Positions 51,957 to 61,613 of a stretch of 64,000 nucleotides of DNA are shown piece after piece. This DNA is from Planctomycetota bacterium (GTDB lineage Bacteria; Planctomycetota; B15-G4). Position 1 is the stretch's first letter. Every line of letters starts with the position of its first letter. The stretch is taken from positions 301,370-365,369 of the forward strand of contig JAJDEP010000003.1 in NCBI GenBank assembly GCA_029259715.1, given 5' to 3'. The notes under the pieces are model-generated. The model was not told the DNA's origin and did not search any database. It saw only the letters and a program-made list of their open reading frames with translations. Both the position numbers and the translations under genes were made by a program.

Positions 51957-53087
51957 CTACTTCATGACCTGGCTGATGGCGAACATCGGCATGATCAGAC
52001 TCGAGACGATCAGCGCGACGACGGCGCCCATCAGGATGGTCATGGTCGGTTCGATGGTCGCGACGAACGCCTTGATGGCCGACTCGACCTTCTTCTCGTG
52101 GTGATGGCTGATCTTGCCCAGCACCTCGGGCAGCGTTCCCGAGCGCTCACCGAGGGACAGCATGGCGGTCTCGGCCGGCGGGACCAGCGGGTTGTCGACC
52201 AGACTCGCCGACAGGTCGCCGCCATTCTGGACGTCCTCGCGCGAACGCGACCACAGCTTGCGGTACTCGTTGTTGCCCGAGACCGCCGACGCGATCTGCA
52301 GCGCCTCGAGGACGTTCAGGCCGGCGTTCAGCATCACGCCGAGCACGTGGAAGGCCCGCGACAGGGCGACCGCCCGGATCAGACCGCCGAAGGCAGGCAC
52401 CTTGAGCACCACGGGGTCGCAGATCTCGCGCCCCTTCTGCGAGCGCAACGTCAGGAAAAGCGTCGCGAACGTGCCGAGCGCCGCGGGCGCCAGCCAGGCA
52501 CCGTGCTCGATCATGAAGTCCGAGAGGGCCATGAAGAATTTGGTCGGGCCGGGCAGCTTGCTCGGGTCCTTCTCGAACAGCACGGCGAACTTCGGGAACA
52601 CGTTGACGAGCAGGAAGATCACCACGCCGACGGCGAGGACGGCCATGAAGGCCGGGTAGGCCATCGCGCCCTTCACCTTCTTGCGGGTGCTGATGTCGCG
52701 CTCCATGAACTCGGCAACCTTGCCGAGCATGTTGCCGAGGTCGCCGGTCATCTCGCCGGCGCGCACGAGCGCCAAGGCCACCGGAGAGAACGCCCAGCTG
52801 TGATAGGACATCGCCACCGAAAGGGGCTTGCCCTCCTCGACGTTGTGCCGGATGTTGCCAACGAATCGCGCCAGGTGCGGCGTGCCCGACTGCTTCTCGA
52901 GCACTTCGAGCGCGGCCGAGAGGTTCAGGCCCGTGTCGAACATGATCGAGAGCTGCGTCACGACCTCGAGGATCTGCTGCGGCGGCACCTGCATCTTCTT
53001 GACCGCCAGGTCCATGCGCTGCTTCAGGTCTGCAAAGGCGGACGCCCGGTGCTCCGGCGCAACGGCTTCTTCGGCTGCCATGTTCAT
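51957..53087 (-). CDS. type II secretion / type IV pilus inner-membrane platform protein (GspF/PilC family)
   Basis: 376 aa. Two GspF repeats (ALSYPAF/AMAYPAFMAV..., LxxAGxxxGxL motifs VRAGEMTGDLGNML and SLGERSGTLPEVL). ATGA overlap with the ATPase gene. Confidence 0.85.
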   Translation of the reverse strand: MNMAAEEAVAPEHRASAFADLKQRMDLAVKKMQVPPQQILEVVTQLSIMFDTGLNLSAALEVLEKQSGTPHLARFVGNIRHNVEEGKPLSVAMSYHSWAFSPVALALVRAGEMTGDLGNMLGKVAEFMERDISTRKKVKGAMAYPAFMAVLAVGVVIFLLVNVFPKFAVLFEKDPSKLPGPTKFFMALSDFMIEHGAWLAPAALGTFATLFLTLRSQKGREICDPVVLKVPAFGGLIRAVALSRAFHVLGVMLNAGLNVLEALQIASAVSGNNEYRKLWSRSREDVQNGGDLSASLVDNPLVPPAETAMLSLGERSGTLPEVLGKISHHHEKKVESAIKAFVATIEPTMTILMGAVVALIVSSLIMPMFAISQVMK

Positions 53088-54796
53088 CGACTGATCTCCG
53101 TGACACGCACGACCTCATCGAGCGTCGTGACCCCCTGGGCAACCTTGGCGAGGCCATCGAAGGCCATCGACTGGTGTCCCTGCTTGGCTGCATGCTTGCG
53201 CATCGGCGCCAGCGACGGATTCTTCGTGATCAGGTCGCGCATGGCGTCGTCGATCATGAAGAGTTCGTAGATACCGGCGCGGCCCGAGTACCCGGTCTGA
53301 CCGCAGTGGGCGCAGCCTTCGCCGCGCAGCATCTCGGTCACCTCGATCTCGTACTTCTCGAAGATCGCGAGCTCTTGCTCGTCCGGGTCGGCCGATACGG
53401 CGCACGACTTGCACACCCGCCGGACCAGCCGCTGGGCGAGCACGCCGTTGAGGGCGGCGCCCAGCAGGTAGGACTCGATGCCCATGTTCACGAGCCGCGG
53501 GACGGCGCTGATCGCGTCGTTCGTGTGCAGCGTCGAGAACACGAGGTGACCGGTGAGCGCGGCCTCGACGGCGATCGACGCCGTCTCGCGATCGCGGATC
53601 TCGCCGACCATGATGACGTCGGGATCCTGACGCAGCATGGCGCGTAGCACCGAGGCGAAGGTCAGGCCGGCGCGTTCGTTCACCTGCACCTGGTTGACCA
53701 TGTTCAGGTTGTATTCGGTCGGGTTCTCGACCGTGCAGATGTTGCGCTCGATCGAGTTGATCGTCGCCAGCGACGCGTACAGCGTGGTCGTCTTACCCGA
53801 TCCGGTGGGCCCCGTGACGAGGAACACACCGTTGGGCCGGTTCACCAGGTCGGTGAGCGGCTCCTGCAGCTTCATGCTCAGGCCGAGGCTCGACAAATCG
53901 CCCATCATGGAGCTGCTGTCGAGCACGCGAATCACGATCTTCTCGCCGTGATAGGTCGGCAGCGTCGAGACACGCAGGTCGATGTTGCGGTTGTCGAGCA
54001 TGACCTGCATGCGCCCGTCCTGCGGGATGCGCCGCTCGGCGATGTCGAGGCCGCTCATGATCTTGACGCGCGACACGATGGCCGGCGCCATGCGCACCGG
54101 CGGGCGCAGCGATTCACGCAGCATGCCGTCGATGCGGTAGCGGATGCGCAGGACGCCCTCGTCCGGTTCGATGTGGATGTCGCTGGCCCCCTCGCGGATG
54201 GCCTTGGCGATCACGAAGTTGACCAGGCGCACCACCGGAGACAGACCGGCGACCTCCTCCATGTTGTCGAGCTCGTCGATGGCCTCCTCGACGACCTCGA
54301 TGTCGGACGTCCCGATGTCTTCGATGATGTCGTCGACCATGAAGCCGGCCTGGTTGTCCGACGCCTGGGCGATGCCGCGGGTGATCTCGTTGGGGTTGGC
54401 CACCACCAGCCGCAGCTTCAGGCCGGTGAGGCGGCGCAGGGCATCGATGGTGAAGAAGTCGGTGGGATCGGCGATGGCGACGGTGAGCTCGCCGTTCACC
54501 TGGTACAGCGGCAGCACGCCGTGGCTGCGGGCCCAGTCGCGGTCGAGCAGTTCGGCCAGGCCGGGGTCGCCCAGGCCGGGGATCAGGCGCACGAACGCCA
54601 GACCGGCCTGGTGAGCGAGGGCGCGCAACAGGATCATCTCGTCGACGATGCCGAGACGCACCAGCCGCTCGCTGAGCTTCTCCTCGGTGGACTCCGGGGT
54701 GGCCTTCATGCCCCGCTCGAGCTCGGCTGCGGGGACGAGCCCCGACTGCTTCAGAGTCTCGACGAGGCTGTCTTGTTCAAGTCCGACGAAGCTCAT
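53084..54796 (-). CDS. GspE/PilB-family secretion ATPase
   Basis: 570 aa. N-terminal GspE-N domain, Walker [14 protein letters not shown], Asp box, Walker B IMVGEIRD, His box, tetracysteine CKSC...CAHC zinc motif. Confidence 0.9.
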   Translation of the reverse strand: MSFVGLEQDSLVETLKQSGLVPAAELERGMKATPESTEEKLSERLVRLGIVDEMILLRALAHQAGLAFVRLIPGLGDPGLAELLDRDWARSHGVLPLYQVNGELTVAIADPTDFFTIDALRRLTGLKLRLVVANPNEITRGIAQASDNQAGFMVDDIIEDIGTSDIEVVEEAIDELDNMEEVAGLSPVVRLVNFVIAKAIREGASDIHIEPDEGVLRIRYRIDGMLRESLRPPVRMAPAIVSRVKIMSGLDIAERRIPQDGRMQVMLDNRNIDLRVSTLPTYHGEKIVIRVLDSSSMMGDLSSLGLSMKLQEPLTDLVNRPNGVFLVTGPTGSGKTTTLYASLATINSIERNICTVENPTEYNLNMVNQVQVNERAGLTFASVLRAMLRQDPDVIMVGEIRDRETASIAVEAALTGHLVFSTLHTNDAISAVPRLVNMGIESYLLGAALNGVLAQRLVRRVCKSCAVSADPDEQELAIFEKYEIEVTEMLRGEGCAHCGQTGYSGRAGIYELFMIDDAMRDLITKNPSLAPMRKHAAKQGHQSMAFDGLAKVAQGVTTLDEVVRVTEISR

Positions 54797-55197
54797 GCCT
54801 TGTCCTCGCTCGAGGCCGGATCGGTGTCGCCGTCCGCGGCCGGGTCCGTCGGAGCCAGCGCTTCGACCGCGTCCTTGGCGGCACCCGGCTTGGACCCCTT
54901 CGCCGTGGGCATCGGCGCCTGCTCCGCGATCTCGAGGCGCTCCTGGAGACCCGTGATGGAAAGCGCCGTCATCAGCACCTCGGACGGCTCGATGATCAGG
55001 AACGACAGCCCGCGCGTCTTGGCGAGCTCGTTGAACTCGAGCAGCCCTTCGAGGCTCTGGCTGTCGAACTCGACGACCCGCGAGGCATCCATCTGGATGG
55101 ACGTCACACCGCGACTGATTTGTTCGGAGATGGTGGCCGCGAGGTCGGTGATGACACCGTGGGCCAGACTTCTCCCTCCTTCGATGCGTTGAATCAT
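54793..55197 (-). CDS. STAS-domain protein (anti-sigma-factor-antagonist fold) embedded in the secretion operon
   Basis: 134 aa. The approx. 100-aa core (VVEFDSQSLEGLLEFNELAKTRGLSFLIIEPSEVLMTALSITGLQERLEIAE) is STAS-like, with a C-terminal acidic tail. 4-bp overlap with the ATPase start. Confidence 0.65.
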   Translation of the reverse strand: MIQRIEGGRSLAHGVITDLAATISEQISRGVTSIQMDASRVVEFDSQSLEGLLEFNELAKTRGLSFLIIEPSEVLMTALSITGLQERLEIAEQAPMPTAKGSKPGAAKDAVEALAPTDPAADGDTDPASSEDKA

Positions 55198-61046: not shown

Positions 61047-61082
61047 CGTCTTACATGTCTCGTTTCTGTCAGCGGCTCGCGG

Positions 61083-61613
61083 CTAGCCTTCGGTCTCGGC
61101 GGGGTCGGTCATCCACCACGTGTGGACGCCGACCTCGTTCAGGTCCTTGAAAATCGTCACTTCGAGTTCCACTAGGTAGTTGCCCTCGAACTCGTCGGCG
61201 TCGACCTCGATGCTCGGGTCGGCGGCGTCCACCGTGCGCACGACCACCACCTGCTCCCAGGTGGGATGCGACACGATGACTTCGTACTCGGCCGAACGCG
61301 GAGGCTGGTACTCGGTCTCGTCGAGATCCCAGAGCGTGTGGACGGAGTCGCCGTACTGCGGCTCCGAGTCCTCGGGCGCCGACCACGGCAACAGCACCGC
61401 TGCCTCGTGGATCTCCTGCGCGAGCATCAAGGCCTCATGCGGGCCTTCCGCGAAGAAGTGGTAGACCTCCGTGGAACGCGCCAGCGAGGCCGTTGAAGCG
61501 ACCAAGGTGGAGCCCACGACGAGGGTCGCGAGCATGAGTTCCGCGAAGCTCGCACCCTGGGTGCGACGGCGACGTGCCGTGTTCGCGACGGGCTTGTTGC
61601 TGGAATGGATCAT
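61083..61613 (-). CDS. minor pseudopilin-like protein, family B copy 3
   Basis: 176 aa from ATG 61613 (MIHSSNKPVANTARRRRTQG|ASFAELMLATLVVG). AQEIHEAAVLLP, DLD...PP, C-terminal HTWWMTDP. The upstream 71-codon R/P-rich extension was rejected as non-coding. Confidence 0.7.
   Translation of the reverse strand: MIHSSNKPVANTARRRRTQGASFAELMLATLVVGSTLVASTASLARSTEVYHFFAEGPHEALMLAQEIHEAAVLLPWSAPEDSEPQYGDSVHTLWDLDETEYQPPRSAEYEVIVSHPTWEQVVVVRTVDAADPSIEVDADEFEGNYLVELEVTIFKDLNEVGVHTWWMTDPAETEG

Follow-up and report, generated by a model that had tools for sequence, protein, structure and literature searches.

Type IV filament machines are known mostly from Proteobacteria, Firmicutes, and Myxococcota. The type II secretion system (T2SS) has five pseudopilin classes, GspG-K, of which GspK is devoid of the glutamate at position 5 (Glu5). 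The genes for the prepilin peptidase and for PilT are often unlinked from the machine genes; the Xcp system of P. aeruginosa, for instance, uses PilD, which is encoded in the pilBCD cluster. In M. xanthus, several paralogous clusters of minor pilins and PilY1 apparently belong to one machine, and one set suffices for a core function (PMC7541494). Here we analyzed a stretch of 64,000 nucleotides with a G+C content of ~70% (hereafter the window) from a Planctomycetota bacterium (assembly GCA_029259715.1, contig JAJDEP010000003.1, positions 301,370 to 365,369), in which an operon for a type IV filament machine and a separate cluster of pilin-like genes were found.

We consider, with a probability of roughly two in three, that the two loci encode one envelope-spanning type IV filament machine with a split core filament set, accessory tips, and a shared sigma-28-like motif. 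The machine would be composed of a PilB/GspE-like ATPase, a GspF platform, a PilM-PilN fusion, PilO- and PilP-like proteins, a short secretin, and a STAS protein as a partner of the ATPase. The operon would supply the I-like B3, the K-like C3, and the H-like H2, and the distal locus, ~20 kb away, would supply the J-like D3 and the G-like A1, A2, and A3. We presume that B3, C3, and D3 (with H2) form a priming tip complex onto which A1 polymerizes, that D1-B1-C1 and D2...B2-C2-H1 are two acquired, faster-evolving cassettes giving alternative tips on the same machine, and that one alternative sigma factor or regulator turns on both loci together. A preceding reading of the letters without database searches (the sequence-only reading) had proposed a split locus with the distal pilins supplied in trans, and this proposal gains support from the conserved synteny and the shared promoter-like motif described below.

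Division of the filament subunits between two loci

The coding frames of the window were picked by third-position GC and annotated with Pfam and NCBIfam. The minus-strand operon at 51957-61613 consists of ten genes in the order B3-C3-H2-PilMN-PilO-PilP-secretin-STAS-ATPase-GspF (Table 1). All ten open reading frames (ORFs) are intact, and most junctions are overlaps or gaps shorter than 45 nt. The same ten genes were called independently on an identical metagenome contig, and the coordinates of the secretin were taken from that call. Pfam, NCBIfam, and the independent gene call agree with the order and content that the sequence-only reading had given for the operon, including the lack of a major pseudopilin, none of the ten genes being G-like. 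The start of C3 most likely lies at 61046, not at 60989 as in the automatic call.

The distal cluster, located on the plus strand at 21.9-31.4 kb between leuS and etfQO, contains eleven pilin-like genes in the order D1-B1-C1-D2-A1-B2-C2-H1-D3-A2-A3. By all-against-all blastp, the window's 14 pilin-like genes fall into five families: A, B, C, and D with three copies each, and H with two. The identities within the families are 41-51% (A), 32-37% (B), 26-31% (C), 26-33% (D), and 37% (H). The A proteins are GspG-like with a mature length of ~130 amino acids (aa) and zero cysteines, and all three copies lie in the distal cluster at 26381-31389. The B proteins are small and I-like. The D proteins (390-446 aa), all of them distal, are J-like in size and N-terminus, and the H proteins are GspH-like. 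The prepilin signature G↓(F/A/L)xxxE with its glutamate at +5 is found in A, B, D, and H and not in C, whose members (~340 aa) lack Glu5.

The earlier reading correctly counted three A genes but only two B/C pairs in the distal cluster, and the operon indeed has no A gene. That reading had overlooked family D, however, and D shifts the logic: D3 alone among the D genes lacks an adjacent B/C pair, and B3/C3 alone among the B/C pairs lacks a D gene. Because D3 is in addition the D gene that is conserved in the relatives, we regard it as the partner missing from B3/C3.

The distribution of these genes among relatives distinguishes what is core from what moves. Homologs of PilMN formed 67 clusters, and every cluster with a source name was from Planctomycetota metagenome-assembled genomes (MAGs). 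A scan of species-representative genomes found 13 species with the operon, two of which are titled Phycisphaerales. The order B3-C3-H2-PilMN-O-P-secretin-STAS-ATPase-GspF is the same in all 13, as well as in several metagenome contigs, with identities of 61-78% for the ATPase and 67-77% for the platform. The B3 ortholog stands at the head of the operon in 12 of the 13 species, and the contig of the thirteenth ends before B3. No A or D gene lies inside the operon in any of the 13; when the metagenome contigs are included, an operon-internal A gene occurs in one related locus, L006, and an operon-internal D gene in none. A complete operon was also found in L023 (JBLIMM010000057.1), a contig filed under a MAG of Pseudohongiellaceae (Gammaproteobacteria). 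Since all the other carriers with a named phylum are Planctomycetota, the cause is probably misbinning and not horizontal transfer.

At the leuS-etfQO locus, the closer relative L007 has all 11 genes of the window cluster, L008 and L009 have A1-D3-A2, and L010 has A1-D3-A2-A3. An arrangement in which H1-D3-A2-A3 is the ancestral block was considered and rejected, since in L008 and L010 the D3 orthologs sit between A1 and A2 and the gene upstream of D3 is the A1 ortholog, not an H gene. L008 and L022 are pieces of one contig (CAZIAK010000028.1), on which the end of gspF (~29.1 kb) and the start of the A2 ortholog (~48.0 kb) are ~19 kb apart, the two loci being convergent. The housekeeping genes between them are the same as those in the window, where the interval from A3 to gspF spans 20.5 kb and holds etfQO, genes for a MORN protein, a sulfatase, and an ABC/FtsX pair, lysS, tig, clpP, clpX, and rlmN, and also an extracytoplasmic function (ECF) sigma/anti-sigma pair, accA, purL, purQ, and an M20 peptidase gene. 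Because the arrangement is kept across relatives with only ~43% identity in PilMN, we conclude that the split is old and syntenic. In L006, the most distant relative, the A1 ortholog (7460-7915, 64% identity) is preceded by the promoter-like motif and lies within the operon, directly upstream of B3, indicating that a unified operon exists in one branch of the clade.

The accessory cassettes behave differently. Directly downstream of gspF, a B-C-H cassette is found in L012 (19016-21014) and a D-B-C-H cassette in L019 (17441-20623), and the genes after gspF in L012/L021 and L019 are B1-, C1-, H1-, and D1-like. The first cassette of the window (D1-B1-C1) has orthologs with 36-42% identity in L007 and is not at the leuS locus in L008 and L010. 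Between the window and the MAG OFTM49, the identities are 36-44% for the accessory genes, 51-54% for D3 and C3, and 77-78% for the ATPase and the platform. The accessory cassettes thus move while the core set, split as A1/D3/A2/A3 in the distal locus and B3/C3/H2 in the operon, stays fixed.

A pairing of A3 with B3/C3 in trans, implied by the sequence-only reading, is unsupported: A3 is the least conserved A paralog and is missing in L008. A1 is better placed. It is the most conserved A gene (60-75% identity to its orthologs), and a perfect 16-bp GC hairpin (~26874-26912 on the plus strand, z=-4.25) lies just 3' of it, with nothing comparable after A2 or A3. This hairpin looks like a terminator or stabilizer and fits A1 as a highly expressed monocistronic gene. 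Because A1 also has the best motif and lies within the operon of L006, it, and not A3, is the likely candidate for the major subunit. The better supported composition is therefore B3/C3/H2 complemented by D3, with A1 serving this set and A2 and A3 as further subunits.

Three further ORFs were noted around the two loci. A beta-helix (NosD/pectate-lyase-like) ORF with a lipobox-like signal peptide (LVAC) adjoins D1 at 20410-21753 on the plus strand, and beta-helix genes also occur near the pilin locus in L007 and L008; the protein beside D1 is a possible substrate or accessory protein. The ORF at 13845-16574 on the minus strand (909 aa) has a strong coding signal, with a third-position GC of 0.94, and no Pfam match. 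A large HEAT-repeat protein (61993-63999, plus strand) is encoded divergently from the operon, and the intergenic region with the B3 motif is common to both. Its gene keeps this position in L001, L002/L003, L004/L005, L006, and L012, and it may be functionally linked.

Table 1. Genes of the machine operon and the distal pilin cluster, and exact sites of the promoter-like motif (window coordinates; matches from Pfam or NCBIfam where an E-value is given)
Feature	Position	Strand	Basis or remark
GspF/PilC-type inner-membrane platform, 376 aa	51957-53087	-	Pfam T2SSF 4.4e-58
Assembly ATPase, 570 aa	53084-54796	-	Pfam T2SSE 1.6e-138, MshEN 3.2e-19
STAS-domain protein, 134 aa	54793-55197	-	STAS_2 4.2e-05, STAS 1.5e-04
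Short secretin with STN/N0-like and secretin domains, 533 aa	55212-56813	-	Secretin 8.4e-39, STN 2.3e-08
PilP/GspC-like connector, 247 aa	56837-57580	-	weak T2SSB match 4.2e-04, residues 183-217
PilO/GspM-like bitopic protein, 174 aa	57577-58101	-	weak NCBIfam GspM_XpsM E=0.0018, below cut-off; position conserved
PilM-PilN fusion of GspL/MshI-like topology, 458 aa	58101-59477	-	weak PilN 0.0099, residues 401-453
H2, GspH-like minor pseudopilin, 166 aa, G↓FSILE	59521-60021	-	N_methyl 6.8e-07, GspH 0.0019
C3, K-like pilin without Glu5, 341 aa	60021-61046	-	family by all-against-all blastp
B3, small I-like minor pseudopilin, 176 aa, G↓ASFAE	61083-61613	-	32-33% identity to B1/B2
D1 (accessory cassette 1)	21905-23170	+	blastp family; degenerate motif at 21820
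B1 (accessory cassette 1)	23167-23673	+	blastp family
C1 (accessory cassette 1)	23655-24698	+	blastp family
D2, J-like large pilin (accessory set 2)	24823-26160	+	degenerate motif TCAACTC-N15-CCGATA at 24735
A1, GspG-like, 153 aa, no Cys	26381-26842	+	TIGR01710 GspG 3.6e-14, below cut-off
B2 (accessory set 2)	26971-27468	+	blastp family
C2 (accessory set 2)	27465-28496	+	blastp family
H1 (accessory set 2)	28499-28975	+	blastp family
D3, core J-like large pilin, 390 aa	29073-30245	+	N_methyl match only
A2, GspG-like	30277-30786	+	degenerate motif at 30252
A3, GspG-like	30913-31389	+	degenerate motif at 30838
Promoter-like motif, B3: TCAAGTCA-N12-CCCGACA	61688-61712	-	75 nt upstream of B3 ATG
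Promoter-like motif, A1	26292-26316	+	position weight matrix score 30.8 bits, best-scoring site of the window
Promoter-like motif, D3	29012-29036	+	exact pattern match

Promoter-like motif and STAS protein

The two loci are linked by a bipartite motif. The pattern TCAAGTC-N14-MCGA has three exact matches in the window against 0.06 expected, a number reached in none of 100 shuffles. The three matches lie upstream of B3, A1, and D3, each on the correct strand. Sites orthologous to the A1 motif are present in L006, L007, L008, and L010, and sites orthologous to the D3 motif in L007, L008, and L010. When the pattern was relaxed to TCAAGTS-N14-MCGA, every match in the first 11 related loci was upstream of a B3, A1, or D3 ortholog and on the correct strand. 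The still wider T[CT]AAGT[CG]-N14-MCGA gave 21 distinct sites upstream of pilin units over 26 related loci, together with one probable false match inside a coding region of L024. All 12 species loci that cover the region upstream of B3 have the motif there, exact or with one mismatch. The consensus of the 21 sites is c-TCAAGTCRC-N11-GMCGAnA.

Weaker sites, with one mismatch or a 13-nt spacer, are located upstream of D1, D2, A2, and A3 (all on the plus strand of the window) and of the L007 orthologs. The other genes of the window have no good site, except for a candidate with one mismatch at 20348-20376 on the plus strand, ~35 nt upstream of the likely start of the beta-helix lipoprotein gene; the beta-helix ortholog in L008 has no motif. 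A scan of the distal cluster for sigma-70 promoters and T-run terminators yielded nothing useful.

The motif resembles promoters of sigma-28 (FliA/WhiG), for which the consensus is TAAAGTTT-n11-GCCGATAA (PMC2859248). The two share T-AAGT in the upstream and G-CGA-A in the downstream element, and differ in the second base of each. On these grounds, the motif is probably the promoter of an alternative sigma factor, probably of group 3. Because the units of the two loci carry the same bipartite motif, one sigma factor or regulator probably activates both.

Two other explanations were tried. An RNA hairpin formed by TCAAGTC and a GC palindrome was rejected, since the spacer is conserved in length and not in pairing or sequence among the 21 sites. 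The ECF sigma factor and zf-HC2 anti-sigma factor encoded at 43986-45537 on the minus strand, between the two pilin loci, are unsupported as the regulator: no motif lies upstream of the pair, and the motif is not ECF-like (AAC/CGT). In the region 7070-10623, a second ECF-like sigma factor gene, likewise with no motif upstream, adjoins a gene in which a Ser/Thr kinase and an FGE-sulfatase domain are joined.

Every related locus has a STAS gene between those for the secretin and the ATPase. Its stop codon overlaps the ATPase start (ATGA) in the window, and the two genes overlap or abut in most loci. The FDS motif of the protein is invariant across the related loci and presumably stands at the position of the phospho-serine in SpoIIAA/RsbV-type proteins. 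A literature search found no precedent for STAS proteins in type IV pilus or T2SS operons, and a search on planctomycetal T2SS gave nothing relevant. The MlaB-MlaF pair is an analogue for a STAS protein regulating an ATPase, and by this analogy we speculate that the STAS protein may regulate the assembly ATPase. Equally speculatively, it may provide the input to a partner-switching module in control of the sigma factor of the motif. A combination of the STAS protein and the sigma-28-like promoters into an assembly checkpoint, a pilus/T2SS counterpart of the flagellar FlgM-sigma-28 system, is an unlikely scheme. In such a checkpoint, the RsbV/SpoIIAA-like STAS protein would signal the condition of the machine, or of its ATPase, to an anti-sigma factor of the partner-switching type, and the group-3 sigma factor thereby released would transcribe both the machine operon and the distal cassettes for subunits and tips. 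If true, it would explain how the split locus is coordinated.

Machine subtype and alternative explanations

We describe the system as a type IV filament machine without a firm subtype, because it presumably works in the manner of a T2SS or a type IV pilus but by sequence does not qualify as a member of any named family. No operon or pilin gene reaches an NCBIfam equivalog cut-off, and the matches are found at the Pfam level for T2SSE, T2SSF, and Secretin. The genes that are absent from the window give little further guidance. Among the substantial ORFs of the window, Pfam detected no Peptidase_A24 domain and no T2SSE-family ATPase other than that of the operon. A tblastn search with a PilT probe, validated by its matching every ATPase gene, found the operon ATPase only, both in the window and in all 26 related loci (518 kb, with redundancy). 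A PilD probe, which lacked a positive control, had no match in the window or the 26 loci. The statement of the sequence-only reading that the window has neither a prepilin peptidase nor PilT is thus upheld by the domain scans, and the tblastn probes agree. It says little about the machine, because such genes are often unlinked.

A function as a T2SS has a little less than an even chance. In this case, the A subunits, with B, C, and D as the cap, would make up a short pseudopilus in the periplasm that pushes folded exoproteins through the secretin and needs no retraction ATPase, and the alternative tip cassettes would select different substrates. The best NCBIfam scores are those of GspE, GspF, GspD, GspG, and GspH, yet every one is under its curated cut-off: the ATPase scores 599.8 bits with GspE against a cut-off of 630.25 (PilB, 589 against 676), the platform 289 with GspF against 424 (PilC, 258, also below its cut-off), the secretin 181.5 with GspD against 351 (PilQ, 161, and MshL, 140.7 against 250, both likewise too low), the A proteins 53 with GspG against 88.85, and the H family 42.6 with GspH against 80 (H2 with TIGR01708, 5.9e-11). 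The five subunit classes correspond to GspG-K, with C lacking Glu5 like GspK. The A proteins are cysteine-free like GspG and align best to it over most of their length, the family profile covering GspG 5wda at residues 11-107. The PilM-PilN fusion has a GspL-like topology; Pfam, NCBIfam, and its family profile gave no GspL match and only a weak PilM/PilN signal, the profile reaching PilM 3jc8_M with E=0.013 at residues 37-152. The neighborhood is rich in sulfatases and hydrolase-like proteins, and no PilT-like gene occurs in the window or the 26 loci. Against a T2SS, no PDZ-bearing GspC was found, the PilP/GspC-like gene being recognized also by its place between the PilO-like gene and the secretin gene, which is kept in relatives.

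Several of the features that speak against a T2SS favor a surface type IV pilus of the type IVa (T4a) or MSH-like kind, used for adhesion or motility. The three D/B/C sets would then be interchangeable adhesive tips, and PilT and PilD would be encoded elsewhere. We hold this to be possible, though its odds stay somewhat below even. The order MN-O-P-secretin-...-ATPase-platform is that of the pil/msh operons (mshIJKL...EG, pilMNOPQ), not of gspC-O. The ATPase, which comprises an MshEN N-domain, the T2SSE core, and a CxxC...CxxC motif, aligns with M. xanthus PilB (3jc8) over its full length, from residue 11, and with GspE structures from residue 156 only; its N-terminus is PilB/MshE-like and not a GspE N1 domain. 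The large modular D proteins have beta-sandwich domains, which are more typical of tip adhesins. There is a precedent for several minor-pilin sets on one machine (PMC7541494), and a sigma-28-like promoter would be in keeping with expression alongside flagella in a motile stage. Other properties do not suit a pilus: no PilT gene is near any locus, a single 458-aa ORF encodes PilM and PilN as a fusion, the secretin has no AMIN domains (STN and Secretin only), the A subunits are without the C-terminal disulfide of T4a pilins, and no PilY1-like protein was found. As a separate observation, residues 8-70 of the ATPase form two MshEN-like helical repeats, for which the model of the MshE-related c-di-GMP motif scores 20.9 against a cut-off of 38.

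The minor subunits themselves did not reveal their affiliation. B3 has no family match in Pfam or NCBIfam. For family C, no match was found in Pfam (40 members), NCBIfam, or the sequences of the PDB, and for family D, Pfam gave none beyond the N-terminal methylation motif in 27 members. Profiles of C and D searched against PDB sequences matched nothing or the N-terminal helix alone. Family C has 96 representatives among 1.84 billion. PilY1-like and PilV/W/X proteins have no Pfam match among the operon and distal pilin ORFs or the members of the C and D families; a D homolog is called "PilW family protein" in one source, a name that no model backs. The models of the Verru_Chthon pseudopilin cassette (TIGR02596-02600) did not match B, C, or D, and H1, H2, A1, and A2 match protein D of that cassette only, with 17-27 bits against a cut-off of 70. 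AlphaFold2 models were built with homologs from a protein search as input. The model of D3 (pLDDT, the predicted confidence, 87) shows a pilin helix and sheet followed by C-terminal beta-sandwich modules, and that of C3 (pLDDT 86.6) an N-terminal pilin helix, a small sheet, and then a beta-solenoid. Neither has a significant whole-chain match in the PDB, the top Foldseek hit of C3 being Thermus ComZ with E=0.13.

Several points weigh against the interpretation of the two loci as one machine with a split core set and a shared sigma-28-like motif. No homology of B, C, or D to GspI/J/K or PilV/W/X could be detected, and what suggests their roles in a tip complex is size, N-terminus, copy number, and gene neighborhood. 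The motif has a spacer of 12-13 nt, longer than the 11 nt of the E. coli sigma-28 promoters, and the available sequence showed no sigma-28 gene. A second machine elsewhere in the genome may use some of the distal pilins.

In its stronger form, the last point would mean that the distal cluster serves wholly or partly a different machine encoded elsewhere, that the operon uses B3-C3-H2 with other subunits, and that the complementarity of the two loci is coincidental. Planctomycetota genomes usually carry many prepilin-like genes, which makes such a second machine conceivable. We consider this quite improbable, since the same motif stands before both loci, and only them, in the window, and the relative arrangement of the loci is kept across relatives despite the ~43% identity in PilMN. 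The A1 ortholog inside the operon of L006 and the accessory D-B-C-H cassettes directly after gspF in L019 also speak against it. The notion that a canonical gsp or pil system elsewhere has made the operon superfluous and left it to decay, to which the missing peptidase and major subunit and nothing else point, is contradicted by ten intact, tightly packed, and mostly overlapping ORFs, by the conservation of the full operon in 13 species-level genomes (ATPase, 61-78%; platform, 67-77%), and by the conserved promoter motif upstream, and is hardly credible.

Comparison with known systems

One machine with a core set divided between two loci would represent a self-contained, clade-restricted machine variant in uncultured Planctomycetota. 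The split architecture alone is of moderate interest and would not surprise specialists, because there is the multi-set precedent of M. xanthus and unlinked pilin and peptidase genes are common. What sets the variant apart is the clade-specific orphan families of minor subunits, the STAS protein embedded in the operon, and the sigma-28-like regulon motif. The layout offers a natural experiment on priming and tip complexes made from genes at different loci and on the swapping of tip cassettes, and the motif provides a handle that should help to find the full regulon, with any substrates, the peptidase, and the regulator, in closed genomes.

Among single proteins, the C3 model resembles ComZ of Thermus thermophilus (PDB 6qvi, with an inserted beta-solenoid) in combining a pilin helix, a sheet, and a beta-solenoid. 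With E=0.13, a TM-score of ~0.18, and no sequence similarity, this is a lead and not a membership.

Among complete systems, the T2SS (Gsp/Xcp/Pul) shares with the window the secretin, the GspE/F-type ATPase and platform, an L-like fused actin-fold/bitopic protein, five pseudopilin classes with a K-like one lacking Glu5, cysteine-free G-like subunits, and the absence of a retraction ATPase nearby. It differs in that the I/J/K-like proteins of the window are orphan families with beta-solenoid or beta-sandwich additions, the pseudopilin genes lie at two loci, a STAS protein is present in the operon, and the genes do not follow the gspC-O order. The MSHA and type IVa pilus systems (mshIJKLMNEGF; pilMNOPQ and pilBCD) have in common with the window the order MN-O-P-secretin-(x)-ATPase-platform, the MshEN-type ATPase, and pilin genes clustered apart from the machine genes. 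In the window, however, a STAS protein occupies the place of MshM/MshN, neither of which is present, and PilT (in the sequence examined), AMIN domains, a subunit disulfide, and PilY1 are missing. The M. xanthus clusters (PMC7541494) are similar in that one genome carries multiple sets of priming or tip pilins. The sets of the window differ from them in consisting of three or four pilins without PilY1, in belonging to pilin families unrelated in sequence, and in having a core set that is split over two loci.

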